This document shows, one piece after another, positions 5,681 through 64,000 of a stretch of DNA of 64,000 nt; position 1 is the stretch's first letter, and each line of letters begins with the position of its first letter. Under the pieces are notes generated by a model. The model was not told the origin of the DNA. It saw only the letters and a list, made by a program, of their open reading frames with translations, and searched no databases. A program made the position numbers and the translations under genes. The DNA is taken from the sequence record PZ212788.1; one strand, given 5' to 3'. This stretch comes from a phage.

Positions 5681-5681
5681 A

Positions 5682-5710: not shown

Positions 5711-5741
5711 AGCTATCATGATTGTTTAACCTGGAGGCACA

Positions 5742-6332: not shown

Positions 6333-6333
6333 G

Positions 6334-50458: not shown

Positions 50459-50507
50459 TGTAAACTATCAACACATGGAAGTGTTGTTGAGCAAAGAGGA
50501 GACTTTT

Positions 50508-50792: not shown

Positions 50793-51016
50793 CGACTTTG
50801 GTTAAAGCTACCTTTGTAGAAGAAAAGATGACAGACCTGTCATTCTTTAAAGAAGGAAAGACCTACGAGGTTTATTACGATAAAGCTCGTGCAAACAAAA
50901 TGATTAAAGACGAGGAAGGGGTTGCCTGGTATATCTCTCACCTGGCAAACGGTGAGTATCATATCTACGGAACCACTTTGCTTGCCAAGTTTGTAGTTGT
51001 TGAAGAGGACCTATGA
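50789..51016 (+). CDS. Small early protein, member of bipartite-motif family (75 aa)
   Basis: RBS AAGGAGA; motif FKEGKTYEV...IKDEEGVAWYIS. Confidence 0.45.
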   Translation: MTTLVKATFVEEKMTDLSFFKEGKTYEVYYDKARANKMIKDEEGVAWYISHLANGEYHIYGTTLLAKFVVVEEDL

Positions 51017-51207
51017 AAGTAAAGTATCTTGCTGAAGGTATGAATAGGTATTTTACCCTTGGGGAAGAATATTGGCCCTTTACAAACAACGGTGATGTCT
51101 ACGTGAAAGATAATTTCGGCACGCCGTGGTTTCTGCACTCTAATGGGCTGGGATACTCCATTTACTGCGGTGCAGTGAACAACACAACTCTTGCAGAGTT
51201 CGTTTAG
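51013..51207 (+). CDS. Small early protein, member of bipartite-motif family (64 aa)
   Basis: RBS GAGGA; motif FTLGEEYWP...VKDNFGTPWFL. Confidence 0.45.
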   Translation: MKVKYLAEGMNRYFTLGEEYWPFTNNGDVYVKDNFGTPWFLHSNGLGYSIYCGAVNNTTLAEFV

Positions 51208-51217
51208 AGGAGGTAGG

Positions 51218-51589
51218 ATGTTAGTAAAAGGTACCCACACAGTCAAACAACGTATTGAAGTTGAGATTGATGATTGTGAGCTGAAGCATATTTTACGGTC
51301 ATGCTCCAACGTTTTGCTCCTTAGTATTCTTCAGGAGCGAGCGGAGAACGAGTTCTTAAATGCATTGGCAGGCCGTCCCGGTGACTTCTGTGTGCGTAAG
51401 CGTGGTGACAACAAGTCGTGGTTGTGGGAGATCGATGCCGACTGGGATTACCACAAAAATGAGGGTATAGATGAGCCTATTCGTGAACTGACGGACAAAG
51501 AGATTCAGATGTACAATGAAGTTTGTCATTGGGCAACACGCCAACAAATTTACCTAGACCCTGTGTGGCTGATTGAAAATAGTCGTTGA
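51218..51589 (+). CDS. Hypothetical early protein (123 aa)
   Basis: ATG 51218 with RBS GAGGAGG preferred over ORF-track start 51191. Confidence 0.45.
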   Translation: MLVKGTHTVKQRIEVEIDDCELKHILRSCSNVLLLSILQERAENEFLNALAGRPGDFCVRKRGDNKSWLWEIDADWDYHKNEGIDEPIRELTDKEIQMYNEVCHWATRQQIYLDPVWLIENSR

Positions 51590-51614
51590 CAAGAAGTAAG
51601 GTTAGATGTAAGAT
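51586..51614 (+). promoter_or_regulatory. Sigma70-type promoter
   Basis: -35 TTGACA, 17-nt spacer, -10 TAAGAT; upstream AAAATAGTCG shared with promoters at 60208 and 63497. Confidence 0.6.
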
Positions 51615-51665
51615 ACTCCTCACAAACAGAGTATTGATTGTTAAATAATTAAGGAGACCTCTAAG

Positions 51666-51920
51666 ATGAAAATCATGTTGAAACCAGAATGCGTTGCAAA
51701 CGACCGAGCTTTTAAAGATTGCACACTTGGCGCTACTTATGAAGCAGAGTTTTGTGAGAACCCTTTGGTAAAAGCCCTTTTGGAAGAAGGGGCCCCTCTA
51801 TCACAAGAAGAGCTTGATGAGCTGGAAAACTCAGCACAGTGCCTTACCTTTAAAGATGATGAAGGAGACTCTGTCTGGTGCACTGTTAACGAAGTAGTTT
51901 TTGTAAAAACTGAACATTAA
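51666..51920 (+). CDS. Small early protein, paralog of 51984-52244 (84 aa)
   Basis: RBS AAGGAGA; KPECVANDRAFKDCT and FKDDEGDSVWCT align with KPDYLEKDSAFRDCT and IEDDNGDCVFCT. Confidence 0.5.
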   Translation: MKIMLKPECVANDRAFKDCTLGATYEAEFCENPLVKALLEEGAPLSQEELDELENSAQCLTFKDDEGDSVWCTVNEVVFVKTEH

Positions 51921-51923
51921 TAC

Positions 51924-51952
51924 TTGACAACAGCGATAGGACCTAATACAAT
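51924..51952 (+). promoter_or_regulatory. Sigma70-type promoter
   Basis: -35 TTGACA, 17-nt spacer, -10 TACAAT. Confidence 0.6.
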
Positions 51953-51983
51953 GGTCCTATCAAAACGAAAGGGGACCACAGCA

Positions 51984-52244
51984 ATGACCAAACAATATCA
52001 ACGAATTAAAGCCAAGGTTAAGCCAGACTATCTAGAGAAGGACTCTGCTTTTCGGGACTGCACAGCTGACAAAGTTTACACAGGGGCCGTCCTGTTGAAC
52101 GATAAACTTGAAGTAGATGTGCTGGGTAAAGAGGCCGTTATCGAGGATGACAACGGTGACTGTGTTTTCTGCACCACACGAGAGCTAGAAGTCTTAGAAT
52201 ATTTCGGTGAAATCTTCAACTCCTTAGACGACGAGGAAGCGTGA
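51984..52244 (+). CDS. Small early protein, paralog of 51666-51920 (86 aa)
   Basis: ATG 51984 with RBS AAAGGGGA preferred over ORF-track start 51924, which overlaps the promoter. Confidence 0.5.
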   Translation: MTKQYQRIKAKVKPDYLEKDSAFRDCTADKVYTGAVLLNDKLEVDVLGKEAVIEDDNGDCVFCTTRELEVLEYFGEIFNSLDDEEA

Positions 52245-52633
52245 TGAAAAATATTTGGGATATCGATATCTTTGAAGCCTCTAAGCTTGACGGTGCTGAT
52301 GGAGTGATTATGGTGTCTGATGGCAAGGCAACACTAACTTCCGGAGATATCATCTATGCCTTGGACGAGCTGGCGCTTCTGAAATCTACCGGTAACACTT
52401 TGGAGGAGCGTCTTCAGGGATTCGCTTTCAAAGAAGGTACAAATACAGCCATGATGTGCACCACACGGACAGTTCAGGTTGGTAACGGTGTCTATATGAT
52501 TATTGCTGTGTGTCCTAAATTCAGCAACGTCAACAAAGATGATGCTGACGCGGTCAACGATGTGGTTGTTCTCTTCGTGGGTGACGCTATGGCAGATCTG
52601 ATGAATGCAGGAGAAGCAGCAAATGAAGACTGA
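52244..52633 (+). CDS. Hypothetical early protein (129 aa)
   Basis: ATG 52244 overlapping upstream stop (TGATG), RBS GAGGAAG. Confidence 0.45.
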   Translation: MKNIWDIDIFEASKLDGADGVIMVSDGKATLTSGDIIYALDELALLKSTGNTLEERLQGFAFKEGTNTAMMCTTRTVQVGNGVYMIIAVCPKFSNVNKDDADAVNDVVVLFVGDAMADLMNAGEAANED

Positions 52634-52925
52634 AAACATCACCCCAGCAGGGTTCTTAAAAGTATACCGTGAACTGCTATATACTACAGAGGACAGTGTT
52701 CTAGAGTATCCAGAATATCTTTTGCTGTATAAGTATCTGCAGGAGGCTGGTGAAAATCTGCCAGTTAGTGCAGAAGGTGGTCCAAACTGGATATACAGCG
52801 CATGGAGAAAGGTTGACATTCTCCCAGACCCAGGTAAAGATATGGTAGTTTGGCAGCTTATCAACAACATCGGGATTCCAATCTTTGATGAAGCTGTTAA
52901 AATCTATTTTGAACTTGACGATTAA
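52623..52925 (+). CDS. Hypothetical early protein (100 aa)
   Basis: ATG 52623 with RBS AGGAGA preferred over 52605. Confidence 0.45.
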   Translation: MKTENITPAGFLKVYRELLYTTEDSVLEYPEYLLLYKYLQEAGENLPVSAEGGPNWIYSAWRKVDILPDPGKDMVVWQLINNIGIPIFDEAVKIYFELDD

Positions 52926-52942
52926 TATCAGGAGACCTTAAG

Positions 52943-53188
52943 ATGACTGAAGCAGTTGCTCGCGCAGGACAGAAAGTACGTTGTGTTGAAGTAGGTTTTG
53001 GTGGCAAAGGGTGTCAAAACTTGACTCAAGGCAAGGAATATGCTGTTATCTCTGGTGGTGGCGACGAAAGTATTGTGTTCGAGGGCCACATCCTGGATGC
53101 TGAAAACTTTGAAATCTTTGACGACGATGGGGATCCGATCACCTGCCTGCTGGACGGGAATTGGGGAACTTTCGAAGTGATTGGCTAA
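52943..53188 (+). CDS. Small early protein, member of bipartite-motif family (81 aa)
   Basis: RBS CAGGAGA; motif LTQGKEYAV...FDDDGDPITCLL. Confidence 0.45.
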   Translation: MTEAVARAGQKVRCVEVGFGGKGCQNLTQGKEYAVISGGGDESIVFEGHILDAENFEIFDDDGDPITCLLDGNWGTFEVIG

Positions 53189-53198
53189 CAAATACCTA

Positions 53199-53227
53199 TT
53201 GTAATTTACAGAAGGGGATGCTAAAAT
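53199..53227 (+). promoter_or_regulatory. Sigma70-type promoter
   Basis: -35 TTGTAA, 17-nt spacer, -10 TAAAAT. Confidence 0.5.
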
Positions 53228-53271
53228 AGTGTCTCCTTCTATGTTGTTCAAATAAAATCGGAGATTCCATA

Positions 53272-53640
53272 ATGGAACAAATGAACGATCAAGAGTCGGT
53301 TGCGATGAACGAGCAAGAACAACCTCAAGAATTTTTCTTAGGGTTAAGTAAAGATCAAGTGTCTCTTTTGCTAGTGCTTTCTTCTTTCATGGGAAGACTT
53401 CAGGAGCTCACACAACAACCGGAGGCTGAACAATTATTTCAGGCTCTGCGTGAAGAAGAAAAATATCGTCGTTTGGACTATGCCTTAGGTTGGGTAGCTC
53501 AACAACGAGATATGTTGATGGCCCTCTCTGGGACCACAAGTTTTGCAATGGGCCTGTTGGCTCAAGTTCAGGACAAATTAATTCAAGCAGGGTTTGCACA
53601 CACGGCAAACACTAACGAAGAACAAGGAGACAAAGAATGA
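53272..53640 (+). CDS. Hypothetical protein, Gln/Glu-rich N-terminus (122 aa)
   Basis: RBS GGAGA; start overlap ATGA with the next gene. Confidence 0.45.
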   Translation: MEQMNDQESVAMNEQEQPQEFFLGLSKDQVSLLLVLSSFMGRLQELTQQPEAEQLFQALREEEKYRRLDYALGWVAQQRDMLMALSGTTSFAMGLLAQVQDKLIQAGFAHTANTNEEQGDKE

Positions 53641-54908
53641 GCGTTATTCAACAATTCGCTAACCCGATGAATCCGCGTGAAACTGTTTTACTGGCTCACG
53701 GCATGATTAAACGCGTCAGCATCAAGCCTATCAAAGGTGCTGATCCTACAACAGGTATTAAAACCACTGTGTGGCAAGGTAAGAAAATTGAGTCCAGCCA
53801 CACCATCTCTTTACTGATTTCTGAACTGGATTCCTCTGATAACCTACTTCAAGGTGGTGAAGAAGTTTGGATCAGTATGGGCGATAAGCTGCTTAAACCG
53901 GGTCATCAAGACTCTGTCTCTGTTAAAATTGATGACAAGTGGGAAACCGTAACGCCAGGATGGATCGTAAATATCCCTTTGAAGGCAAACGAGCATAACG
54001 GTAAGACCTACTACAAAGGCTCACTGGCTAAGATGGTTAAGCTGGGTGCAGGAGAGGCTCCAGCAGCGACTCAGCAGCAAAAACAGCAACAAGGTGCACA
54101 ATCACAAGGCCAGAAGCAGAAACCTCAGCAGAATGCCAATCAGGACGTTTTACGCATCTATGGTGATGTGACTCAGATTGTTGGCAACGTGGTTACTGTT
54201 AATGACCACAAGATTGGCGAAGGTGCTATGGTTGTAACTGATGAGCAGCTTAAAGACCTGGTGGTAGGTGGTCGTGTTGCAGCCATTGTTGACAAAGACA
54301 CCGGAAACATTATCAGTGGTTTCAAAGCCTATCCTCCTAAGGCAGAGAACGGCACTCAAGGCTCTGGTGGCAAGCGTAAATCCTCTTACGACCCTATCGG
54401 TGTGGAGACGGGACATAGCATCAATGCGTTGCAGATCATCCTGGATCGCGGGTTTAAGGTAGACGACCCACTGGGCGTGGCTAAAACACTGCACGTAGTC
54501 ACCATTGAGCTTAAGAAAGAGTATGCTCAAGCCACCAACCGAACTGAAGATGAAGTAGGTGCCAGTGTCGGTAATGCGGTGTTGAACGCTTGTCGCCGTA
54601 TTGACAAGAAAACGAAAGTTGATGATTTTGCAGTGGCAATTACTGCAGAAGCAAAAGATGTCTTGACTAATCTAGCTGAGCCGTTGTACGATTGGATCAA
54701 GAACGGTGCTGAGTCCACTGACCATCAAGAACCTCAGGCTGCCAAACAGGAAGCAGCTCCACAGCAAAACACTGTAGACGCTCCTCCTGTAAATGATGGG
54801 GAAGATGACCCGATGGATCAGAATCCAGCACAGTATGACTTCTGTGATGACATACCTTTCGCTCCGGTGGGTTTGCAATATGGAAAAAGCAGAATCCACG
54901 CATTGTAA
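53637..54908 (+). CDS. Two-domain protein with Gln-rich linker and acidic SSB-tip-like motif; possible ssDNA-binding protein (423 aa)
   Basis: RBS GGAGA; linker [20 protein letters not shown]; near C-terminus [19 protein letters not shown] resembles the E. coli SSB tail DFDDDIPF; no enzymatic motif. Confidence 0.35.
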
Positions 54909-55503
54909 GAGGTGCATCAAGTGCGGAGAGGTGAAAAACCTCTCCGAGTTCTACAAACACCCAAAGATGTCTGACGGTCATCTTAATAAGTGCAAAGAGT
55001 GTTGCAAGAAGGCCAGCAGGGAGGCTGACAGGTTTTCCCACGACTCTTCAGAAAAAGGTGTAATACGCGTGCTGTACAAGGCTCAAAAGTGCAACAGCAA
55101 GCAAAGAGGCCACCCTCCTCCGACTTACACCAAAAAAGAGTTTAAGGAGTGGCTATACCTGAACGGTTACAAAGAGTTGTATGATCAGTGGGTAGCCAGC
55201 GGATACGACAAAAGGAAAAAGCCTTCTTGTGACAGGATAGATGATTTCAAAGGGTACTCTTTTGATAATATCCGTTTAACGACTTGGGGAGAAAATAAAG
55301 ACAAGCAGACGGAGGATATTCTGTTGCATAGAAGCACCAGCGGTAGACGGTGTAAAAATGTAAGAAGGCTGGACATGAATGGAAACGTTCTTAAAGAATG
55401 GGTATCCCACAATTCTTGTAGAAGAGAAACCGGAATATGTGTTGATTACTACATTCATGAAAAAATTCCAGCCCCCGATGGATACCTCTATGAATACTTT
55501 TAG
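54880..55503 (+). CDS. Zinc-finger / HNH-like endonuclease-like protein (207 aa)
   Basis: ATG 54880 overlaps the upstream gene by 29 nt; [10 protein letters not shown]...CKECCKK zinc finger; [25 protein letters not shown] resembles the HNH DHID...N motif with His replaced by Arg. Confidence 0.4.
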
Positions 55504-55518
55504 CACCTAACTAACATA

Positions 55519-55547
55519 GCCCTGCCCGAAAGGGTGGGGCATTTTTG
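55519..55547 (+). terminator. Rho-independent terminator
   Basis: GCCCTGCCC-GAAA-GGGTGGGGC stem-loop followed by ATTTTTG; same hairpin as at 44014. Confidence 0.75.
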
Positions 55548-55565
55548 TATAAGGAGATCTGAAAA

Positions 55566-55982
55566 ATGACATTAGAAGATATCATTGTTAAACCTGAGAA
55601 CTATGACCAATACAACCTGTCAACTCAATCTGTAGACCTTGGATGCGCCACAGTTAGTGCGTGGCTGGTTAACGGAAAAGAGCTGGACAAGTGCTTAGAA
55701 GCTCACATGTCTGTTAACAAGTTTCTGGATGAAAATACTCACTGGCTTGAGGGTGCAGGAGTATATGCTTCATGGTTGGAAAGTATGGGATTCGACTACC
55801 AATCTGAAGAAGGGTGGTGGAGCTATTTAGCTATCTGCCCAGAGACGCTGCAATGCTTCATGAAATATTCTGAAGATTTGGAGTACCGGGCGGTGGTTGA
55901 TAGTGCTATTGCCCGTTATAGCCGTAAACCTTTTTCCCACGACATTAAAACTGTGGAAGAGTTTGTTGAAGTTTTCTGTTGA
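55566..55982 (+). CDS. Hypothetical protein (138 aa)
   Basis: RBS AAGGAGA. Confidence 0.45.
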   Translation: MTLEDIIVKPENYDQYNLSTQSVDLGCATVSAWLVNGKELDKCLEAHMSVNKFLDENTHWLEGAGVYASWLESMGFDYQSEEGWWSYLAICPETLQCFMKYSEDLEYRAVVDSAIARYSRKPFSHDIKTVEEFVEVFC

Positions 55983-56008
55983 CACAGGTGGAAAGGTGTG
56001 CAATTATA
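55979..56008 (+). promoter_or_regulatory. Sigma70-type promoter
   Basis: -35 TTGACA overlapping the upstream stop, 17-18 nt spacer, -10-like AATTATAAC. Confidence 0.45.
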
Positions 56009-56078
56009 ACTTCATAGAACGGGAGGACGTGATGAACGAAGAAAACTGGGATGTATAACTAACAGGAGGCCACTGCCC

Positions 56079-56276
56079 ATGATTTATCGAATCCGTGTAA
56101 GAGAAGATGCACCAGGCTGTTACTTTGACTGGCGTGGGTGGTGGTTTCTCCACCCAATGGATGGACTCACAGATAGAATGCTGGATGCTGCCCTTTATAC
56201 AGATACCGACATAGAATATAATCTCTATCTGAAGGACGGTATAGATAACGGCCTGTTTGAAGCAATTCCTGTGTAA
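56079..56276 (+). CDS. Small hypothetical protein (65 aa)
   Basis: RBS CAGGAGG. Confidence 0.4.
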   Translation: MIYRIRVREDAPGCYFDWRGWWFLHPMDGLTDRMLDAALYTDTDIEYNLYLKDGIDNGLFEAIPV

Positions 56277-56344
56277 GAGACTGTGATAGCTATGTTTTAT
56301 GATCTTCCTGTAGCACCACCACCTGTTGAACCCGGAGAACTAAG

Positions 56345-56770
56345 ATGATCTATGAAATGCCAAAACTGATTCGTGACGATGCCCAAAACGCCCACACCTT
56401 TATCATGGGCAAGCGCATGGATATTATTTGTCATAAAGATTTCTGGGAAGGTAGTTACTTCACAGAATATTTTGGTAAACTGGATAATGGTCTGCTGATC
56501 CAGTTCTACACCGATGCGGAAAACAATATCTGCTGGGAGTTCGAAACTGAAGATATCCATAAACTTTTCACCTTCCTAGGTATTAAGGTTGAGGCCAAGT
56601 TTGAAGAAGGCGAGTGCGACGATTGTGGATTCTACGAGGTAACAGATTTCTATCTCCCAAGTGGTGAGAACCTTTACTATGAAAGCCACTTCGGCAACTC
56701 AAATATGCCACAAGGTTGGGATGAGTTTTTTGAAATTGCGGAAGAGGAGCTGACATACCGTGATTATTGA
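56345..56770 (+). CDS. Hypothetical protein translationally coupled to the Macro-like gene (141 aa)
   Basis: RBS GGAGAA; 3' end overlaps the GTG start of 56760. Confidence 0.45.
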   Translation: MIYEMPKLIRDDAQNAHTFIMGKRMDIICHKDFWEGSYFTEYFGKLDNGLLIQFYTDAENNICWEFETEDIHKLFTFLGIKVEAKFEEGECDDCGFYEVTDFYLPSGENLYYESHFGNSNMPQGWDEFFEIAEEELTYRDY

Positions 56771-57218
56771 TACTGTAGCGGGAGATTTAATCTCCCTTTT
56801 TAAGAGCGGTGCTGGTCACCTGATCCACGGTTGTAACTGCTTTCATACAATGGGTGCAGGCATAGCGAAAGATATTGCCCGTGAGTTCCCTCAAGCACTG
56901 GCAGCCGACAAAGAGACTGCCTATGGTAATCTGGACAAGCTGGGTATGTTTTCTTGTTGGGAGCATTTTGCCAAGAACAGGGTCGTATATGGAATCAACC
57001 TGTATACCCAGTTCTACCCAGGGCCCAATGCTGAATACTTCTCAATAATGAAAGGTTTTGAGCGAGTCAACGAGGTATTCAAAGGTGTGTCATTGCCGTT
57101 CTACATTCCTAAAATTGGATGCGGTATTGGCGGTCTAAAGTGGGAACATGTAGAAGATGTAATTAATCTTGCAACCACAGATATTGATGTGGTTGTAGTA
57201 GAGTACAAAAAGTGTTGA
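56760..57218 (+). CDS. Macro-domain-like protein (Macro_2 type), putative ADP-ribose binding or hydrolase
   Basis: Motif HLIHGCNCFHTMGAGIAKDIAREFP matches the N-C...MG.GIA...F.P signature of bacterial Macro_2 domains; second Gly-rich site KIGCGIGGL. Confidence 0.55.
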   Translation: MIIDTVAGDLISLFKSGAGHLIHGCNCFHTMGAGIAKDIAREFPQALAADKETAYGNLDKLGMFSCWEHFAKNRVVYGINLYTQFYPGPNAEYFSIMKGFERVNEVFKGVSLPFYIPKIGCGIGGLKWEHVEDVINLATTDIDVVVVEYKKC

Positions 57219-57243
57219 CGACCATCTTCTGAGGTGATATAGT
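57215..57243 (+). promoter_or_regulatory. Sigma70-type promoter
   Basis: -35 TTGACG overlapping the upstream stop, 17-nt spacer, -10 TATAGT. Confidence 0.6.
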
Positions 57244-57272
57244 TTCCACAACAACTAAGAGAGGAGAGCACT

Positions 57273-57443
57273 GTGGAGACTAAAATCTTAATTCTTGCTG
57301 TGGTAGATACAACCGAAGGAGCTATATTCGAATCTGCAGGGGGGTATTTCTACCTACCATACGGAAAAAGAACTTCCGAGCCAAGTAAAGATTCAATCCT
57401 CAAGGTGTTCCCGTGTGCTTTCTGGCTGGAGATTTTGGTATAA
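57273..57443 (+). CDS. Small protein (56 aa), below ORF-track cut-off
   Basis: GTG start with RBS GAGGAG 7 nt upstream; uninterrupted frame to TAA 57441-57443; fills promoter-to-gene gap. Confidence 0.25.
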   Translation: METKILILAVVDTTEGAIFESAGGYFYLPYGKRTSEPSKDSILKVFPCAFWLEILV

Positions 57444-57469
57444 GATTGCAGAGGATTTGGGAGAGAATT

Positions 57470-57664
57470 ATGAGAAACAAGAAAGAGCTTTACTCTGGTG
57501 AGTGGATCAACGATCAACAGGTGGGAGAGGTAACCTGCTTCCGATGTTTTACCAGGTACAATCTTAAAACTGCACCAAAAAGTGTTCCAAAGACTGATGG
57601 TTATTACATAAAAGAACCTCATTGCCCAAAATGTAAATGCCGATTATACTGGAGTAACCTGTAA
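57470..57664 (+). CDS. Small zinc-ribbon protein (64 aa)
   Basis: ATG 57470 with RBS GGGAGAGA; Cys pairs CFRC and CPKCKC. Confidence 0.45.
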   Translation: MRNKKELYSGEWINDQQVGEVTCFRCFTRYNLKTAPKSVPKTDGYYIKEPHCPKCKCRLYWSNL

Positions 57665-57668
57665 AAGA

Positions 57669-57696
57669 TTGACATCTGAAAACTGCAGTGTATAAT
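57669..57696 (+). promoter_or_regulatory. Sigma70-type promoter, near consensus
   Basis: -35 TTGACA, 16-nt spacer, -10 TATAAT. Confidence 0.7.
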
Positions 57697-57727
57697 ATAT
57701 GCATAAACTAACAGAGAGTGATGTATT

Positions 57728-57919
57728 ATGGTAATTTTTAACCGGGATGGTATCATAGTTAGACAGCACCCCTTCCTTGAATACTATCAAATTGAGCAAT
57801 GGTGCTACGGGGATTGCAGTCACTCCTACGGGCAAAGTTGGGGATATCGCACAGTTTTTGAATCAACAGATCTTGATAAAGTAAAACAGAAAGTTTTAGA
57901 ACTTCTTAACAACAAGTGA
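57728..57919 (+). CDS. Small hypothetical protein (63 aa)
   Basis: RBS GAGAGTG. Confidence 0.4.
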   Translation: MVIFNRDGIIVRQHPFLEYYQIEQWCYGDCSHSYGQSWGYRTVFESTDLDKVKQKVLELLNNK

Positions 57920-57929
57920 GTATCGTGCC

Positions 57930-58262
57930 ATGGTAACTTTGGAAAGACGTAAAGCTATCGCCGCCACACTGGCAGACATCTTTTGGGATTGCAACTTAAA
58001 AGATACCCGAAATTGTGGTGCATCTGTAGATGTATTATTCCCACGGCCTACTATTGTTGCAATGGGCAACCTGCTCGATGTGGTATATGGAGCATGGGAC
58101 AAGGAAGGTGGATTCTATATCTGGCAACCTGACTACGGGACTTGGAAAGAGGTTAGTGGTTCTTCGGACTTCACTCCTGCAGTGGCTAAAATGGATGGCT
58201 GGAAAATCTATGTCGGTAACGACATGGAACTGAAAGGCGAAATTGTTTACTGGTTACCTTAA
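57930..58262 (+). CDS. Hypothetical protein (110 aa)
   Basis: ORF in co-oriented early operon; weak RBS. Confidence 0.4.
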   Translation: MVTLERRKAIAATLADIFWDCNLKDTRNCGASVDVLFPRPTIVAMGNLLDVVYGAWDKEGGFYIWQPDYGTWKEVSGSSDFTPAVAKMDGWKIYVGNDMELKGEIVYWLP

Positions 58263-58283
58263 GAAAGTCCAGGAGATAAAGTT

Positions 58284-58529
58284 ATGAACAAAGGGTGGAC
58301 ATTTGTAGACGGCGTTAAAAACATGCCTCTAGGAAAGTATATTGTAGCCATGGCAGATGAGAATGGAAAGGTTGATTTCGGAGTTTGCGAGGTTGTTCTT
58401 GCAGGATCTGGTGACTATGCTCACAAAACTGGGATAATTAACGGTCATTTCTACTTTGATTACAACCCTGTTGTGGCGTATATGGCTATGCCAGAGTTCG
58501 AGCTCCCAAAGGAAGGTGCAGATGTTTAA
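58284..58529 (+). CDS. Small early protein, possible bipartite-motif family member (81 aa)
   Basis: RBS CAGGAGA; motif MPLGKYIVAMADENGKVDFGVCEV. Confidence 0.45.
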   Translation: MNKGWTFVDGVKNMPLGKYIVAMADENGKVDFGVCEVVLAGSGDYAHKTGIINGHFYFDYNPVVAYMAMPEFELPKEGADV

Positions 58530-58719
58530 GCTTAAATCTGCATGGAACATCGCTGTGGGGGACGAGATCCGTATCCCAGGTGGAAAGACCATTATGAAAA
58601 TATCTCGTATCGAGTACGAAGGTGATCGTGTATTTCATATCTTTGCAGAAGATGGTCGAGAGATTTATATACAGGCAGGATCTCACATCTATATTCGTAA
58701 GAAAGAGGAGGACAAATGA
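58522..58719 (+). CDS. Small hypothetical protein (65 aa)
   Basis: ATG 58522 with RBS AAGGAAGG, overlapping upstream stop; preferred over ORF-track 58456. Confidence 0.4.
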   Translation: MFKLKSAWNIAVGDEIRIPGGKTIMKISRIEYEGDRVFHIFAEDGREIYIQAGSHIYIRKKEEDK

Positions 58720-59045
58720 CAGAGATCATCATTTCAACTGCAGGGTATGTATTCCTGACAATCATTGCACTGGCTATTTTGGTGACAGTGTATGGGTTTG
58801 TTATCCTTCCTATCCTTGAGACATTTAGTTTGTGTCGGTGTTGGAGAAAAGCTTACGGTCCACAACCATGGAAGGACTGGCCCCACCTGGTGCGCTTAGC
58901 GTTCTCTTATGCTTACGATCACTCCAGTAGTGCATGCATAACCGGATACCACGCCCACAACTGGAGCTGGGAAGGGTTGAGGAAATGGAATGTTACAAAG
59001 ACCATACCTCTGCGCATGTACAAACCTAAAAACAAAGACAACTGA
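58716..59045 (+). CDS. Small membrane protein (109 aa)
   Basis: RBS GAGGAGG; N-terminal hydrophobic segment TAGYVFLTIIALAILVTVYGFVILPIL. Confidence 0.45.
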   Translation: MTEIIISTAGYVFLTIIALAILVTVYGFVILPILETFSLCRCWRKAYGPQPWKDWPHLVRLAFSYAYDHSSSACITGYHAHNWSWEGLRKWNVTKTIPLRMYKPKNKDN

Positions 59046-59074
59046 TACTTGAAAATTCCTGGCATATCAAGTAT
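59046..59074. repeat. Inverted repeat at the start of the noncoding region
   Basis: ATACTTGA ... TCAAGTAT arms separated by 13 nt, immediately after the last small gene. Confidence 0.4.
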
Positions 59075-59086
59075 AAGGGGGATTTC

Positions 59087-59181
59087 TAAAATGGATTTCC
59101 TCCTTTTGATATTTCACCGGGCTGGATATTTTAAAATTCTTAGAAAATCAGAAAATGGATCGAAAACTAAAATGGATTTTT
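59087..59181. repeat. Cluster of three AAAATGGAT(T/C) motif copies
   Basis: TAAAATGGATTT at 59087, GAAAATGGATCG at 59151, TAAAATGGATTTTT at 59168; a fourth copy at 59521. Confidence 0.5.
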
Positions 59182-59355
59182 CAGAGTAGGCGCGACAAGC
59201 TGAATAACTCATCCTATCGTTTGCACCATATTCCAGGCCACCATTATAGATTTCCCACACATGCTAACCTCTCTCTACTAGAACTTCCTCCACTTACCCT
59301 TGACCTTCTATGGTAACAATCTAACCGCTATCTTGAAGTTGCGGTGCAGCTTTCC

Positions 59356-59535
59356 AGGTACTCGATCTACTTTTCATTTCAGGGCTTGGATTTTCTGAAA
59401 ATTTTTCTCGATAAATTTCTCAGTACTCGATCTGTTTTTCGTTTTCTGAATCGGATTTTCTGGAAATCGTTCCGGCTCTCAACCTGAAATTTTTGGGGAC
59501 GAAATCGATTTTTCGTTTTCAGAAATGGATTTTTA
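59356..59535. repeat. Imperfect tandem direct repeats, about 65-bp period
   Basis: AGGTACTCGATCTACTTTTCATTTC (59356) versus CAGTACTCGATCTGTTTTTCGTTTTC (59421); GGATTTTCTGAAAAT (59388) versus GGATTTTCTGGAAAT (59453); partial third unit 59491-59513. Confidence 0.6.
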
Positions 59536-59649
59536 AAATTTCTATATGGGAATATTTTAGTGGATACTATTTTATAGTAAATTGTTACGGAGGGTAATTA
59601 GCGTGCTAATTAAATTTATTAAATGCGAGGAGTTCTCATTTAGAATTTT

Positions 59650-59666
59650 GAATGATAATCATTCTC
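59650..59666. promoter_or_regulatory. Fur-box-like motif, copy 1
   Basis: GAATGATAATCATTCTC matches the 3' two-thirds of the Fur consensus GATAATGATAATCATTATC at most positions. Confidence 0.3.
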
Positions 59667-59780
59667 GTTTGCAGAATAACGGGCAGGCCCGGTGATTGTC
59701 TCCCGGCCCCTGTTGCCCCGGCTTGTTATTATAGTATCACACAGGACAAAGAAAGCAAGGATTTTTTGCATAAATTTTTA

Positions 59781-59802
59781 AATGATAATGATAACCGTTC
59801 TC
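59781..59802. promoter_or_regulatory. Fur-box-like motif, copy 2
   Basis: AATGATAATGATAACCGTTCTC contains GATAATGATAACCGTTCTC, about 16 of 19 matches to the Fur consensus. Confidence 0.3.
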
Positions 59803-60207
59803 ATTTTATGCAGCGCCCATCCCCAGTGGTTGTCTCCCCCGTCACCGGTGCCTGCCGTCCTTTCGATAGGTATATTGTGCCACCTGGCGGGGCCGCTGTC
59901 AACACCTTTCAAAAAAAAAAAATTATAACCAGGTGCGCCCACTGCCAGGACCTGGCGGGGGAGAGTGAAAGCTTGCAAACCTGGTAGGGCTATGCTATAG
60001 GGTAGGCAACAACTGGAGAGGAGGTACAAAAATGAAAGGTAATATAATCCCCTGGAAAATGTAGCGACTAATGACGCTGAGGCTATCGCCATGGTTGAAA
60101 AGGCTATGGCGGGAGCGTTGGAACATAAAGAAGAGTACGAAAAAATGGTGGTTAACCTGGCGGGGGCGGCAGGTGGATTCTATCATAAAAATAATTTAAA
60201 ATAGTCG

Positions 60208-60235
60208 TTGACAACAAGGTTAATCATGGTATTAT
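60208..60235 (+). promoter_or_regulatory. Sigma70-type promoter
   Basis: -35 TTGACA, 16-nt spacer, -10 TATTAT; preceded by AAAATAGTCG. Confidence 0.6.
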
Positions 60236-60285
60236 TACCCTACAAGGTGAACAACACCGCACTAACCAGTAAAGAGGATAAATTT

Positions 60286-60483
60286 ATGAACGCATACGGG
60301 ATCAAAGTACGTCGCAACACTCGCCAGGTGGTCACCAATCAAGTGATTTGCCGGGTGGATGTAACCATCAACAACGGGCAAGGCCTTTATAAATTTCGTC
60401 GCGGTCATAGCTATACCCTGCAACAGCTTAATCGTTGCGCCCTGACAAAAGGTCAGATCAACCACTGGTTTAATAAAAAATAA
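60286..60483 (+). CDS. Small basic protein (65 aa)
   Basis: ATG 60286 with RBS AAGAGGA preferred over ORF-track 60208, which coincides with the -35 hexamer. Confidence 0.45.
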   Translation: MNAYGIKVRRNTRQVVTNQVICRVDVTINNGQGLYKFRRGHSYTLQQLNRCALTKGQINHWFNKK

Positions 60484-60486
60484 GTA

Positions 60487-60515
60487 TTGACATACAGTCA
60501 GACACCAAATACACT
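60487..60515 (+). promoter_or_regulatory. Sigma70-type promoter
   Basis: -35 TTGACA, 17-nt spacer, -10 TACACT. Confidence 0.6.
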
Positions 60516-60547
60516 AAAAGCACAAAAGACACTAAGAGGATAAAATC

Positions 60548-60946
60548 ATGAAAACCACTACCTTTAATTTTGATAATGCAGACTTTTCTTTTTCTGATGT
60601 CAAGAACTGCCGCCGTGATCGTGGATTTTACAAGGCTTATAATCTGGTGGGCCTGGACGATGACAATAATTTGCACGAAGTAGCTGAGATCCGGTATTAT
60701 GCCGCCGCCAGCGGGAACACTTACTACTGCGTTTTTTGGATACACGACAACAAGAACAACAAGTACGGCTATACTGGCGGCAAGGCGAGCGGTCACGGTT
60801 ATGATAAAGCTAACGCAGCACTTGAGAGCGCATTAAATGCTATGGGGATCACTGCCGACGGCTGGATCTACGAAGAAGAGTTTTTGTCGGCACTTGCTGA
60901 CCACCTAGGCTATAAAAAGCACATTGTAACATGCGCCCACGAATAA
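60548..60946 (+). CDS. Hypothetical early protein (132 aa)
   Basis: RBS AAGAGGA; Gly/Tyr-rich YGYTGGKASGHGYDKANAALESAL; family not recognised. Confidence 0.5.
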   Translation: MKTTTFNFDNADFSFSDVKNCRRDRGFYKAYNLVGLDDDNNLHEVAEIRYYAAASGNTYYCVFWIHDNKNNKYGYTGGKASGHGYDKANAALESALNAMGITADGWIYEEEFLSALADHLGYKKHIVTCAHE

Positions 60947-60952
60947 AAATCA

Positions 60953-60980
60953 TTGACACGCTGCAAAATTTAAGTAAACT
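60953..60980 (+). promoter_or_regulatory. Sigma70-type promoter
   Basis: -35 TTGACA, 16-nt spacer, -10 TAAACT. Confidence 0.55.
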
Positions 60981-60990
60981 AGACACAAAA

Positions 60991-61009
60991 GGCGGGAATG
61001 TTTCCCGCC
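60991..61009 (+). promoter_or_regulatory. 5'-terminal mRNA stem-loop
   Basis: GGCGGGAA-TGT-TTCCCGCC, about 5-10 nt after the predicted start site, no U-tract; same arms as the hairpin at 63535. Confidence 0.5.
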
Positions 61010-61028
61010 AGCACAAAGGAAAAAGATC

Positions 61029-61424
61029 ATGAATAAGAACGTACGCCGCATCATGAACGAACTGGCAAACGATGAAAAAATTATTGACATGCATTTAGTC
61101 AACATTTGCCGCCGTTGTGTAACATATAACAACCGCGCCGCAAAAGCGCGTGAGATGAACGCAAAAGGCACCTTAAAGCCCTTTCAGGTGGTTGTAAAAT
61201 CTATAACCAGTGCAGCAGGCCAGGCGCATGACCACAACAACGGGAGCACTAATATTGATCCGTCTTACGTAATGAAACGGATCCGGACTTGCAAGAATAA
61301 AGAGCAGGTGTATAATGTCATAGACTGGTTGGATTCTATGGGCGATGTGGTTTACAATAGGTTTTCTGCAGCTATCGAGATCCAGCTTGACAGGTTGGAC
61401 GGTAAAGTACTGAAAACTTACTAA
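61029..61424 (+). CDS. Hypothetical early protein (131 aa)
   Basis: RBS AAAGGAAAAAG. Confidence 0.5.
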   Translation: MNKNVRRIMNELANDEKIIDMHLVNICRRCVTYNNRAAKAREMNAKGTLKPFQVVVKSITSAAGQAHDHNNGSTNIDPSYVMKRIRTCKNKEQVYNVIDWLDSMGDVVYNRFSAAIEIQLDRLDGKVLKTY

Positions 61425-61435
61425 GATTATTTTTA

Positions 61436-61472
61436 GATGGCCTTGACTTCAGGGCCATCAATAAAGTAAACT
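61436..61472 (+). promoter_or_regulatory. Repeated palindrome-promoter element, copy 1
   Basis: GATGGCC-TTGACTTCAG-GGCCATC inverted repeat bracketing the -35 TTGACT, then -10-like TAAACT; 45-bp core is near-identical to the element at 62067. Confidence 0.55.
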
Positions 61473-61504
61473 AATCCCAGTTAAGCGAAAAAGGAGGCTT
61501 GAAG

Positions 61505-61624
61505 ATGAGCACTACACGCCAACACGCAAAGGTAACGATTATCGTTTGCATCATTGGTTACATTCTGGCGCAAATGTTGATGGGTAGCGCCAATGATTTC
61601 GCAAAATTTTTCTTAGACTTTTAA
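61505..61624 (+). CDS. Small hydrophobic peptide (39 aa), below ORF-track cut-off
   Basis: RBS AAGGAGG 6 nt upstream of ATG; predicted single transmembrane helix VTIIVCIIGYILAQMLMG. Confidence 0.35.
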   Translation: MSTTRQHAKVTIIVCIIGYILAQMLMGSANDFAKFFLDF

Positions 61625-61652
61625 TTGACAAGATAACTTAAATCAGTATAAT
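61625..61652 (+). promoter_or_regulatory. Sigma70-type promoter, consensus
   Basis: -35 TTGACA, 16-nt spacer, -10 TATAAT. Confidence 0.7.
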
Positions 61653-61666
61653 ACTAAGCACATAAA

Positions 61667-61682
61667 CGGGAAAACTTCCCAG
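61667..61682 (+). promoter_or_regulatory. 5'-terminal mRNA stem-loop
   Basis: CGGGAA-AAC-TTCCCAG, the same AAC loop and GGGAA/TTCCC arms as the 63535 hairpin. Confidence 0.4.
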
Positions 61683-61704
61683 AACACCAAAAGGAGAAAA
61701 CATT

Positions 61705-62055
61705 ATGAATACTTCCATCACTATGACCGCCGAAGAAAAAGCCCTGCAGATCGCCGCTCTGAAAAAACAGATCGCAGACCTTGAGAATAAGATCGACAAT
61801 TTTGAAATCGACGAAGACAAGTACGACGATAAATATGATGAATGGTTAGACGAGATCTACGGCGAAATCATGATCGGAAACATTTCTTTTCTTCCGTCGC
61901 GTATCCTCAAGGAGCTAGATCCTATCGCTTACCGCTGCGGATTTAGCGACTACATCGACAGCCTGGATATTGAGGACGATGAAGAATACCAGGAATTACA
62001 GACAGAGTTAGAAGAAGCAAAAGAAGAGCTTGCGGAGCTGGAAGAAAACGAGTAA
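61705..62055 (+). CDS. Highly acidic coiled-coil protein (116 aa)
   Basis: RBS AAGGAGA; acidic runs EIDEDKYDDKYDEWLDE and DIEDDEEYQELQTELEEAKEELAELEENE. Confidence 0.5.
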   Translation: MNTSITMTAEEKALQIAALKKQIADLENKIDNFEIDEDKYDDKYDEWLDEIYGEIMIGNISFLPSRILKELDPIAYRCGFSDYIDSLDIEDDEEYQELQTELEEAKEELAELEENE

Positions 62056-62066
62056 GCTTATTTTTA

Positions 62067-62103
62067 GATGGCCTTGACACCAGGGCCATCAATAAAGTAA
62101 ACT
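62067..62103 (+). promoter_or_regulatory. Repeated palindrome-promoter element, copy 2
   Basis: GATGGCC-TTGACACCAG-GGCCATC inverted repeat bracketing the -35 TTGACA, then TAAACT. Confidence 0.55.
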
Positions 62104-62144
62104 TTATACTGTTAACACTGAACTAATGCATAGGAGTTAAAACC

Positions 62145-62390
62145 ATGGCAGCACTAATCACCAAATATTATGCCCCTACCAACACCAAAAGCGCCCGTAT
62201 CATGGTAAAAGGCTTCGGACGTAAAAAGGTGTACACCTGGGATTATGCCTTAGACACGGAAGACAACTACACCAACGCAATGACCGATTTTATTAATGAA
62301 CTAAATAAGCAGATCTTGACAAGTTATAAAGTGACCGATATTGCTTATATAGGTGAAGGCGGGATCTGTTTTGTAGGCATTGTGAAATAG
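62145..62390 (+). CDS. Hypothetical early protein (81 aa)
   Basis: RBS AGGAG. Confidence 0.45.
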   Translation: MAALITKYYAPTNTKSARIMVKGFGRKKVYTWDYALDTEDNYTNAMTDFINELNKQILTSYKVTDIAYIGEGGICFVGIVK

Positions 62391-62400
62391 TTATTTTTTC

Positions 62401-62440
62401 GGTGGTCCTGGTTGCAGGGCCATCTATAAAGATAATTTAT
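62401..62440 (+). promoter_or_regulatory. Degenerate third copy of the palindrome-promoter element
   Basis: GGTGGTCC-TGGTTGCAG-GGCCATC followed by TATAAAGATAAT; same arm and -35 layout but diverged. Confidence 0.35.
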
Positions 62441-62464
62441 TAACACCATGAAAGGAGAAAGTAC

Positions 62465-62818
62465 ATGATCAGCGGGGCAAGTTTTATTATTGGCGCTATT
62501 GCTACGGCTTTAATTGTAAATAAGATCCAGGATAAAAAGGAAAGAGGAAGTACCGCCCTTGCAGAATATCCATTTTGGGCATTCAACGATAACGAAGATT
62601 ATATTATAAAGTATAAAAATAAAGAAGGTGACCAAGTAACACCGCGACCGATCCCGGCTTACAAAATGCAGGAAACACTATACCGCCTGGAGGCGGGAGG
62701 CGCAAAAATTGTAGACTTTTGGGGATACGACCACACAGATCAGGAAGTTATAAAGCGCCGTATCCGGGCTATTCAGGCCAATATTGAAGTTAGCAAGGGG
62801 GGAATATATGAAAATTAA
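62465..62818 (+). CDS. Membrane protein with N-terminal transmembrane helix (117 aa)
   Basis: RBS AAAGGAGA; hydrophobic SGASFIIGAIATALIV. Confidence 0.45.
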   Translation: MISGASFIIGAIATALIVNKIQDKKERGSTALAEYPFWAFNDNEDYIIKYKNKEGDQVTPRPIPAYKMQETLYRLEAGGAKIVDFWGYDHTDQEVIKRRIRAIQANIEVSKGGIYEN

Positions 62819-63005
62819 TTTCGAGAAAATTGTAAAGCGCCCTCATGATTCCGAAGAGCTGCCAGAACGCCGCCAGCGTAACAATAAACTGAATAAGCCA
62901 AAAAGGTTTGGGAAGATCTGGCGTAATCATTATGATCGTAAATTGCCCGGCCTACTTTTGGAACGTGAACGACAGGCAGAACGATACCGCCATAAAGACA
63001 AATAA
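62808..63005 (+). CDS. Small basic protein (65 aa)
   Basis: ATG 62808 with RBS GGGGGAA; Arg/Lys-rich PERRQRNNKLNKPKRFGKIWRNHYDRK. Confidence 0.4.
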   Translation: MKINFEKIVKRPHDSEELPERRQRNNKLNKPKRFGKIWRNHYDRKLPGLLLERERQAERYRHKDK

Positions 63006-63013
63006 CAACCAAC

Positions 63014-63043
63014 GCCCCGCCATTGTGCGGGGCTTTTTATTTC
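63014..63043 (+). terminator. Rho-independent terminator
   Basis: GCCCCGC-ATTGT-GCGGGGC stem-loop followed by TTTTTATTTCT. Confidence 0.8.
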
Positions 63044-63186
63044 TATCCTACGAATAGCGCCCCTGGTTGGCCCCACAAACGCCACAAAAGCCCCTACCTA
63101 TGCAATCCCCTTTCTTGACCTGAAAACAACGTCTAGGGCCGTTTTATGGCGTTAAAAATATTATTGACAGTGATTTTATTCAAAGC

Positions 63187-63215
63187 TTGACACCTTGGAA
63201 TAGTCCGGATATACT
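63187..63215 (+). promoter_or_regulatory. Sigma70-type promoter, second TTGACA 23 nt upstream
   Basis: -35 TTGACA, 17-nt spacer, -10 TATACT; another TTGACA at 63164. Confidence 0.65.
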
Positions 63216-63246
63216 AACCACATCAAAGCAAGAAGGAGTAAACGCC

Positions 63247-63507
63247 ATGCGTAAATTAAAAAATTTTGATAAAGTAGATGTTGTCCTGAATAATTTTTAC
63301 TACTGCAATAATAAAGCCGTTTGGTGGCGTGATAGTTCCACCGATAAAGTTAAAGCGCGCTTTCTCCAAGGGCACTGGCAAGGCCGCCCAGTGATTAAAA
63401 TCTTAGGGCAATTGGTAGCGTTTAAAAATTGCCACCGTGTTGACGACTTTGAAGATATTTTGAACATTTTACGCCACAATAATTTAAAAAATAGTGTTGA
63501 CAAGTAA
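63247..63507 (+). CDS. Hypothetical early protein (86 aa)
   Basis: ATG 63247 with RBS AAGGAG preferred over ORF-track 63187, which coincides with the -35 hexamer. Confidence 0.45.
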   Translation: MRKLKNFDKVDVVLNNFYYCNNKAVWWRDSSTDKVKARFLQGHWQGRPVIKILGQLVAFKNCHRVDDFEDILNILRHNNLKNSVDK

Positions 63508-63524
63508 GCCTCAATAAGTATACT
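63497..63524 (+). promoter_or_regulatory. Sigma70-type promoter
   Basis: -35 TTGACA overlapping the upstream stop, 16-nt spacer, -10 TATACT; preceded by AAAATAGTG. Confidence 0.65.
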
Positions 63525-63534
63525 TAAACACACA

Positions 63535-63553
63535 GGCGGGAAAACTTCCCGCC
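63535..63553 (+). promoter_or_regulatory. 5'-terminal mRNA stem-loop
   Basis: GGCGGGAA-AAC-TTCCCGCC; same 8-bp arms as the hairpin at 60991. Confidence 0.5.
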
Positions 63554-63581
63554 ACTAACAAAGAAAATAGGAGAAAATATC

Positions 63582-64000
63582 ATGACCACCGTTAACATTA
63601 CTACAGGTTACAATTTATCTTTCGACGTGCTGACCGACGAACAAAAAGAAAAAGCCGTTGAAATGGTCCGCGAAAGAGAAGAACACAGCGGGGATAATTT
63701 TTTTGCAGAAAGTGTAATTGAATACTATAAAGAATATGTTTTTCCAGAGTATGGCCTTGAAGATACCGAAGTACATTGGTCAGGCTTTTGGTGCCAGGGT
63801 GACGGCGCGTCAATCAGTGCGGAAAACGTGGATTTAGAAAAATTCTTGCGTAAAGTAAAGGCCCTGACCAAGTTCCGATCAATTCGTCACTTGTTCGGCA
63901 CAATGCACGATGGCGAGCTATCCGCAAGTGTTGAGCGTGATCCATATAGCCGCTATAGTCACGAAAACACTGTAAGCGGGTACATCGATACTACATGGCT
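63582..64000 (+). CDS. Hypothetical early protein, N-terminal 139 codons (3' end outside window)
   Basis: RBS AGGAGAAAA; no stop to window edge; motif VHWSGFWCQGDGASIS, family not recognised. Confidence 0.45.
   Translation, partial: MTTVNITTGYNLSFDVLTDEQKEKAVEMVREREEHSGDNFFAESVIEYYKEYVFPEYGLEDTEVHWSGFWCQGDGASISAENVDLEKFLRKVKALTKFRSIRHLFGTMHDGELSASVERDPYSRYSHENTVSGYIDTTW

Follow-up and report, generated by a model that had tools for sequence, protein, structure and literature searches.

The 64,000-nucleotide stretch of phage DNA analyzed here (sequence record PZ212788.1; hereafter, the window) encodes a highly acidic protein of 116 amino acids. Its coding sequence lies at 61705..62055 on the plus strand, from the ATG at 61705 to the TAA at 62055, and is the counterpart of gp192 of phage rV5 and of bas51_0110 in Escherichia phage WalterGehring (Bas51). 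The locus is 97.8% identical to that of WalterGehring and shares over 90% identity with more than 100 further Vequintavirus (rV5-like) genomes. In every matching Vequintavirus genome the gene is labelled "hypothetical protein", and the rV5 gene table lists gene 192 as a 116-amino-acid, 13.6-kDa protein of pI 3.7 and gives no homolog or function for it (PMC3606486 Table S3). The gene is already known as an annotated hypothetical protein, and neither it nor its family has a described function, structure or curated model. The original prediction, made from the letters of this stretch, was that the protein is a candidate DNA mimic parallel to T7 Ocr, the inhibitor of type I restriction enzymes and BREX. 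The reading tentatively favored here is that it may act as a polyanionic decoy that engages a conserved DNA-binding protein of the host.

The product contains 36 Asp/Glu residues and 10 Lys/Arg residues (net charge -26, pI 4.05, Asp/Glu fraction 0.31), so the description of a very acidic, Asp/Glu-rich protein holds. It ranks first in acidity among the 89 predicted open reading frames (ORFs) of the window, where the mean Asp/Glu fraction is 0.13 (z = 3.2). Another fairly acidic small ORF of the same array lies at 56345-56770 (141 amino acids, net -21, pI 4.2), and several further ORFs of the window range from -11 to -18 in net charge. A ribosome-binding site, AGGAG, can be read at 61692..61696 (plus strand), 8 nucleotides 5' of the ATG, and the sequence AAAGGAGAAAAC at this site is kept in 5/5 aligned relatives. 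The consensus promoter that had been reported directly 5' of the gene is indeed there: a sigma-70-type promoter with a 12/12 match occupies 61625..61652 (plus strand), with TTGACA at 61625-61630, a 16-nucleotide spacer and TATAAT at 61647-61652, and its end lies 52 nucleotides from the coding sequence. Three perfect consensus promoters occur in the 64 kb, compared with 0.08 expected, and none of 100 shuffles attains three. The promoter of the acidic gene is kept in WalterGehring, and in the related locus L008 the -10 hexamer reads TATACT.

The acidic ORF is a real gene under purifying selection. Compared with an IMG/VR ortholog of 87% amino-acid identity, dN/dS is 0.067 (dN 0.07, dS 1.05), and this value together with the thousands of homologs described below establishes the gene as real. 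A spurious ORF arising from compositional bias is excluded by the same dN/dS and by the size of the family.

Immediately upstream lies a small ORF for a predicted single-pass membrane protein, the equivalent of rV5 gp193, at 61505..61624 (plus strand; 39 amino acids from the ATG, 41 from a TTG at 61499). It matches phrog_16391 (E = 8.7e-31), and its rV5 counterpart, gene 193, is listed as 'membrane protein, 1 TMD' (PMC3606486 Table S3). The stop codon of this ORF abuts the -35 hexamer of the acidic gene's promoter. The two-gene cassette is bracketed by two copies of a 38-nucleotide element (TAGATGGCCTTGACTTCAGGGCCATCAATAAAGTAAAC) that forms a stable 10-bp hairpin, both on the plus strand. Copy 1, at 61434..61471, sits just 3' of the stop codon of the preceding gene and 5' of the cassette. 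Copy 2, at 62065..62102, begins 10 nucleotides past the stop codon of the acidic gene and lies 5' of the next gene (62145-62390). These are the two exact-register copies in the window, where 0 are expected, and the predicted RNA folds reach -19.6 kcal/mol (z = -4.6) for copy 1 and -20.1 kcal/mol (z = -5.2) for copy 2. Copy 1 has the loop TTGACT and, 18 nucleotides downstream, TAAACT, a promoter-like arrangement with a 9/12 match; in copy 2 the loop is TTGACA, again followed after 18 nucleotides by TAAACT. A third copy lies outside the window: it is found further downstream in WalterGehring and L008, at 10404-10431 in L001, and also in L009. Intrinsic terminators were considered for these hairpins and rejected, because neither is followed on its 3' side by a U-tract. 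The element may instead be a regulated promoter or operator, or a site of RNA processing or stability. In relatives with 50% identity the hairpin element lies directly 5' of the acidic gene. The gp193-like ORF and the consensus promoter are present in the rV5 lineage and missing from the more distant L009 and L010, in which the acidic gene directly adjoins the hairpin element; this distribution suggests that an insertion gave the acidic gene a new promoter.

In the WalterGehring annotation, the acidic gene belongs to a long same-strand unit that begins at a divergent promoter region and encodes rIIA/rIIB, a helicase, DNA methyltransferases, a primase-helicase and DNA polymerase; after these comes a lengthy run of small hypothetical genes. 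The rV5 paper names this unit "10-1-238-164" and places 33 sigma-70-type promoters across the genome. On the rV5 and WalterGehring maps about 53 genes of the transcription unit precede the acidic gene, and within the window it is the fifth ORF past an ORF-poor gap at about 59.05-60.2 kb. The original prediction had put it near the start of an early block, and with some 53 genes ahead of it this is true locally only. The promoter type and the layout suggest early expression; no transcriptome of the Vequintavirus group was found in the literature. The mass-spectrometry survey of rV5 does not name the protein as a virion component.

The gap itself, about 1.1 kb of ORF-poor sequence at ~59050-60200 within the small-gene array, holds three degenerate 47-nucleotide direct repeats at 59348-59533 with a spacing of 65-74 bp. 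A TTTCTAAAATGGATTT-like motif occurs there four times and ACCTGGCGGGG three times. Positions 50,000-64,000 of the window yielded no tRNA genes, and 58,500-62,500 no Rfam matches. The rV5 paper likewise marks a 'non-coding' box, and the stretch could be an origin or a regulatory region.

The predicted structure of the protein combines a small head with two terminal helices. An AlphaFold2 model built from a 20-sequence alignment (predicted local distance difference test score, pLDDT, 89; predicted template modeling score, pTM, 0.67) has helices at residues 9-31, 37-52, 64-71, 73-86 and 93-114 and a beta-hairpin at 55-62, in line with the helices that had been expected. The N-terminal helix (residues 9-31; 61729..61797, plus strand) is amphipathic, with heptad-spaced I16, L19, I23, L26 and I30, and is the predicted first arm of a stalk. 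The conserved head spans residues ~37-88 (61813..61968, plus strand) in the order helix, beta-hairpin, helix, helix. The C-terminal helix (residues 93-114; 61981..62046, plus strand) is very acidic and also amphipathic, with a heptad of Y95, L98, L102, A105, L109 and L112; the model, the residue pattern and the hydrophobic moment make it the predicted second arm. Together the terminal helices are predicted to form an acidic coiled-coil stalk.

The head carries the signature YDEWLDE..G.I.IG..F.PSRILKELDPIAYRCGF.DY.DS, and the query contains the family signature Y-D-E-x-L-D-E ... P-S-x-[IV]-L-x-E-x-D-P-x-A-Y-R-x-G-x-x-D-[YW]. Invariant or near-invariant positions are Y44, L48, D49, S65, L68, E70, D72, P73, A75, Y76, G79 and D82. 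Among 129 aligned sequences, identity reaches 98% at D72, 96% at A75, 94% at L68, 91% at L48, 89% at G79, 88% at each of P73, Y76 and D82, 85% at Y44 and 81% at S65, and K69, R77 and C78 are conserved as well. The best-conserved head residues are mostly hydrophobic or stand at the helix starts assigned by DSSP (L48, L68, A75 and Y76; S65 and D72-P73, which precede helices 64-71 and 73-86). Conserved positions of these two kinds fit a conserved scaffold that displays charge.

The stalk is optional in the family. Head-only forms of 50-85 amino acids exist, such as gp02 and gp05 of Providencia phage PS3 and a protein of Jojan60, and one head-only homolog of 67 amino acids (P0050) is predicted to be an autonomous alpha/beta domain (pLDDT 91.3, pTM 0.76). 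In other variants a Cys-rich, zinc-ribbon-like tail replaces the C-terminal helix, or two tandem heads occur in long cyanophage-like proteins. The long proteins (P0067, P0078, P0084, P0131, P0134 and P0137, all metagenomic) measure 211-559 amino acids and carry two tandem heads and many repeats of AETFGA/AESF-type motifs; in several the C-terminus is a hydrophobic anchor. They resemble polyproteins, or genes joined in error, of marine (cyanophage-like) viruses. In P0090 the family is fused to Pfam Kyano_Gp96, the only Pfam domain fusion found among ten long members; its function is likewise unassigned.

The family is very large. A word-indexed search returned 51 homologs, and a profile search of 1.84 billion cluster representatives, each standing for a 50%-identity cluster, returned 3,659 at E <= 1e-3 and 1,433 at E <= 1e-10, mostly of 100-135 amino acids. 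The query is a full-length member of phrog_9294 (E = 3e-52), and its central part, the head, also matches phrog_9396 and phrog_37123. All three PHROGs are labelled 'unknown function'. The PS3 paralogs match all three as well. These unannotated clusters offer no function, structure or mechanism, and they divide what is evidently a single superfamily. Pfam-A and NCBIfam scans of the protein, the head and head-only homologs gave coiled-coil noise only and no covering model. No characterized family member, and no escape or trigger mutant mapping to the gene, was found in the literature.

Among isolates, the family occurs in Vequintaviruses and their relatives on Salmonella, Klebsiella and Serratia, in Vibrio, Pseudomonas (PAK_P1-like), Stenotrophomonas and Pseudoalteromonas phages, in Providencia/Proteus phages (Kakivirus, Autographiviridae) and in Microbacterium, Clavibacter and Gordonia phages. 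Several of the long fusions have a cyanophage-like look. In 72,556 plasmids the family was not found except in one record, which is evidently a Vequintavirus genome: the PLSDB 'plasmid' CP057073, of 137.6 kb and non-mobilizable, has the gene at 97.8% identity to Vequintavirus. A pattern scan of 185,579 species-representative genomes found it in 4 contigs only, all from metagenome-assembled genomes. The family is essentially phage-only. Seventeen GenBank 'Campylobacter phage' records are 89-95% identical to the E. coli Vequintavirus locus; these records and CP057073 are probably mislabelled or contaminating Vequintavirus genomes.

Acidity is a property of the whole family. All 148 of the best representatives have a pI below 4.7, with a median net charge of -29.5 and a median Asp/Glu fraction of 0.31, in a set partly biased by a search profile that itself contains the acidic helix. 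IMG/VR members recovered through head-motif patterns are net negative in 79/79 cases (-4 to -48), and the head-only forms among them carry -7 to -17 in 51-77 amino acids. This family-wide acidity argues that the negative surface is functional. In 129 sequences, the solvent-facing, non-heptad positions of the C-terminal helix are 59-75% Asp/Glu and mostly at most 9% Lys/Arg (16% at one), a pattern unlike the mixed Glu/Lys of an ordinary coiled coil. The simplest reading of this is selection for a polyanionic surface.

The gene is a stand-alone module, typically in small same-strand gene arrays. Of 80 IMG/VR loci fetched, 79 contained the family ORF and formed 55 non-redundant groups; when the six genes on each side were clustered, no neighbor recurred beyond 4 of the 55 groups, and two metagenomic contexts were unrelated to each other. 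On contigs of at least 20 kb (n = 51), the gene lies within 1.5 kb of the upstream end in 6 and of the downstream end in 1, a position modestly skewed toward the upstream end. On contig L011 (40 kb) no ORF precedes it. Providencia phage PS3 (Kakivirus, T7 supergroup) has two head-only paralogs, gp02 and gp05, of 66-67 amino acids, at 1683-1886 and 2931-3131 in its left-end early region of host promoters. An annotated sigma-70-like promoter immediately precedes one of the two, and the early region contains no match to the Ocr PHROG (phrog_2568). Such placement offers a positional analogy to T7 gene 0.3, in some lineages only. A different setting is seen in the siphovirus-like JGI contig L004 (28 kb), where, at 5300-8204, a head-only member stands just 5' of terminase genes and just 3' of a ParB_N gene and two TAGT-family genes, unlike the early arrays elsewhere.

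The head is conserved strongly enough to suggest a rival to the decoy, namely a specific protein-binding module that docks on one conserved host or phage protein, such as a component of the replisome, RNA polymerase, a protease or a chaperone, and modulates it, while the acidic helices serve only dimerization, spacing or solubility. The motif persists across distant phages at the percentages given above for D72, A75 and L68, together with K69, R77 and C78. Moreover, the head folds autonomously in prediction and occurs without the stalk, with other C-terminal modules or in tandem duplication, and the gene shares its transcription unit with replication genes. Set against this are the strong acidity that head-only forms retain and the depletion of Lys/Arg along the stalk. 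No co-occurring gene presents itself as a candidate phage partner, and the hosts span Gram-negative and Gram-positive phyla, which narrows the possible specific targets. Docking of this kind is possible, if somewhat doubtful.

The parallel in size and charge to T7 Ocr stands. Ocr (gp0.3; PDB 1S7Z) has 117 amino acids, 34 Asp/Glu and a net charge of -28, next to 116, 36 and -26 for the query, and the same tool gives a pI of 4.05 for both. Both are non-structural phage accessory proteins made from host sigma-70 promoters, and some homologs resemble Ocr further in that they come first or second among the genes at the left end of a podovirus-like genome. With DNA mimics, which are a functional class and not a homologous family, the query shares small size, very low pI and high Asp/Glu content. 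A likeness in early position is less certain. The host-type consensus promoter is present, but the Ocr gene sits at the leading end of its genome, and the acidic gene lies deep in its unit and is probably not the first gene expressed.

Sequence and fold separate the two proteins. The original prediction saw no clear sequence similarity to Ocr, and none emerged: hhalign of the family profile against T7 Ocr gave 0.5% probability over 8 columns, Ocr matches phrog_2568 ("ocr-like anti-restriction") at 2.5e-57 while the query matches only phrog_9294, phrog_9396 and phrog_37123, and the query has no Pfam Ocr match at E <= 10. The structural comparison with Ocr and ArdA that had been proposed as a check revealed neither fold, the query having a predicted head and helical stalk. 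ArdA (PF07275), the anti-restriction DNA mimic of plasmids and transposons, resembles the query in being acidic and non-enzymatic and in serving a mobile element as an accessory protein; it differs in that the query has no match to its Pfam family and the query's family is not on plasmids. A true Ocr or ArdA homolog that has diverged beyond casual recognition, for which length and charge are the only arguments, is barely credible. Membership of the Ocr or ArdA family is rejected by every comparison run (profile, PHROG, Pfam and fold).

A functional analog of Ocr, directed specifically at type I restriction-modification or BREX without being its homolog, is a separate proposal. The match in size and charge favors it, as do the PS3 early-region paralogs in a region that lacks an Ocr-family gene. 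The plating of Vequintaviruses also bears on it. In the BASEL collection (S1 Data and S5 Table, PMC8594841), for which stocks were grown on a restriction-free host, Vequintaviruses plate on hosts with the type I systems EcoKI and EcoCFT_I at an efficiency of plating (EOP) of about 0.06-1.1 (PMC8594841). All 12 BASEL Vequintaviruses have 9-17 EcoKI sites. WalterGehring, with 13 EcoKI and 6 EcoCFT_I sites, plates at 0.11-0.56 and 0.12-0.75, respectively; DrSchubert (Bas50), with 10 and 4 sites, at 0.08-1.08 and 0.6-1.08; and RudolfGeigy (Bas52), with 14 and 6 sites, at 0.06-0.56 and 0.28-0.9. Siphovirus AugustePiccard (Bas01), which has 3 EcoKI and 6 EcoCFT_I sites, falls to about 1e-4 on EcoKI. 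The Vequintavirus values are thus about 0.1-1 despite 9-17 EcoKI and 4-6 EcoCFT_I sites, against ~1e-4 for a siphovirus with 3 EcoKI sites. Other systems, namely EcoRI, EcoRV and EcoP1, do act severely on Vequintaviruses: WalterGehring plates at about 1e-4 with EcoRI and forms no plaques on EcoRV or EcoP1 (PMC8594841). The BASEL authors describe these phages as exceptionally susceptible to restriction-modification and ascribe the weak type I effects to rare sites (PMC8594841), an account that counts against a type I inhibitor; yet Bas01 drops to 1e-4 with only 3 EcoKI sites.

The same phenotype is found where the gene is not. The phi92-like phages Bas60-62 (12-14 EcoKI sites, EOP 0.1-0.7; 7-9 EcoCFT_I sites, EOP 0.46-1.28) and the Felix O1-like phage Bas63 (9 EcoKI sites, EOP 0.75-1.5; 9 EcoCFT_I sites, EOP 0.3-0.8) have no detectable homolog. 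By tblastn, homologs among Escherichia phages occur in Vequintaviruses only, and 115 records of at least 80% identity cover all 94 Escherichia-labelled hits. Since phages without a homolog are equally insensitive, the phenotype cannot be assigned to the acidic gene, and comparing gene presence with type I insensitivity as a natural experiment is uninformative. Unexplained type I resistance looks common among large virulent coliphages, because Vequintaviruses, phi92-like and Felix O1-like phages behave alike whereas the 3-site siphovirus is restricted. The phenotype is compatible with, and leaves room for, a type-I-specific anti-restriction factor. Considering also that the gene lies deep in its transcription unit and that the protein bears no structural resemblance to Ocr or ArdA, an inhibitor confined to type I systems or BREX is unlikely.

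Searches of the PDB by sequence and profile gave nothing relevant (best E 0.18-0.2). Among non-significant matches the best were to prefoldin beta, by phmmer (E = 0.41-0.48) and by Foldseek (E = 1.5-2.8, template modeling (TM) score 0.40-0.41). The sole resemblance is one of topology, N-helix, beta-hairpin and C-helix; neither sequence nor fold similarity reaches significance. This match, and the cyanophage-like polyproteins with their two heads, AETFGA-type repeats and C-terminal membrane anchor, would agree with an acidic chaperone or assembly helper (a prefoldin-like escort for basic phage proteins) or with an internal protein that is packaged and injected. The prefoldin matches are nevertheless at noise level (E = 0.4-1.5, TM 0.41), and a host-type promoter, small non-structural neighbors and a product that is not named among the rV5 virion proteins all speak against such a role, which is very improbable.

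The decoy, to which we give a probability of roughly 0.4, would be a stoichiometric polyanion expressed from a host promoter and acting on a conserved host DNA-binding protein with no phage partner. It is supported by the family-wide acidity, the non-enzymatic size, the stand-alone, early-type context and the broad host range. In the proposed mechanism, a non-structural accessory protein of the early type would be made soon after infection and would consist of a small autonomous alpha/beta head on a predicted stalk of N- and C-terminal helices with a poly-Glu/Asp surface. It would act stoichiometrically and not enzymatically, as a polyanion of the DNA-mimic type filling the positively charged surface with which a conserved host protein binds nucleic acids. 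The hosts, from enterobacteria, Vibrio and Pseudomonas to actinobacteria, point to a generic or universally conserved target. The candidates, in order of preference, would be the methyltransferase complexes of type I restriction-modification or BREX, as for Ocr; RecBCD/AddAB, as for the acidic coiled-coil protein gp5.9; and nucleoid proteins or RNA polymerase.

Precedents for such a protein are at hand. T7 gp5.9 and lambda Gam, which block RecBCD, are small, acidic, helical phage proteins like the query. The negative charges of gp5.9 are reportedly displayed on coiled-coil helices, and the predicted Glu-rich stalk helices of the query would show charge similarly. Homology to gp5.9 or Gam was not detected, no PDB chain being matched by sequence profile or by fold, and these proteins lack a conserved globular head, while the stalk is the optional part in the query's family. 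T5, a virulent coliphage, encodes Ptr1 and Ptr2, two small and very acidic proteins with no assigned native function (PMC11464382). With the query they fall into one class of possible DNA-mimic or anti-restriction proteins; a T5 homolog of the query was not detectable, the Escherichia-phage matches by tblastn all being Vequintaviruses. Ocr and T5 Ptr1/Ptr2 provide the precedent of unrelated small acidic phage proteins that act as decoys or are sensed as such (PMC11464382). If it is a mimic, the acidic protein would be a new one, not homologous to the known DNA-mimic or anti-defense accessory proteins, and unusually widespread.

Several observations weigh against a decoy. No fold match to any known mimic was found, and proteins other than DNA mimics can be highly acidic too. 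Plasmids commonly carry generic anti-restriction mimics of DNA, ArdA among them, yet the family is not found there, and the acidic gene is apparently not at the leading end of its genome. The phi92-like and Felix O1-like phages match the type I insensitivity without a detectable homolog. Lastly, the head motif is conserved far beyond what a charge scaffold needs, at D72, A75 and L68 above all, and such conservation could instead mark a specific docking site.

A more ambitious version of the decoy would make this protein the founding member of a very large anti-defense superfamily of DNA mimics with a new fold, in which an autonomous acidic head is often carried on an acidic coiled-coil stalk, directed against type I restriction-modification/BREX and/or RecBCD. 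It is improbable; if true, it would account for the near-immunity of Vequintaviruses to type I restriction, and the superfamily would extend widely through enteric, marine and actinobacterial phages. The family amounts in any case to thousands of 50%-identity clusters, nearly confined to phages, with no Pfam or NCBIfam model, solved structure or assigned function. As the rV5-like phages, including the BASEL isolates, are easily grown and the assays are standard, the decoy idea is directly testable. Should it hold, a new and very common fold would be added to the small set of known DNA mimics, and the protein would become a candidate explanation for the indifference of rV5-like therapeutic phages to type I restriction. 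For PARIS and other systems that detect acidic phage proteins, it would be a new trigger or probe. If the protein is not a mimic, the extreme conservation of its head still points to an unrecognized conserved target of phage takeover.

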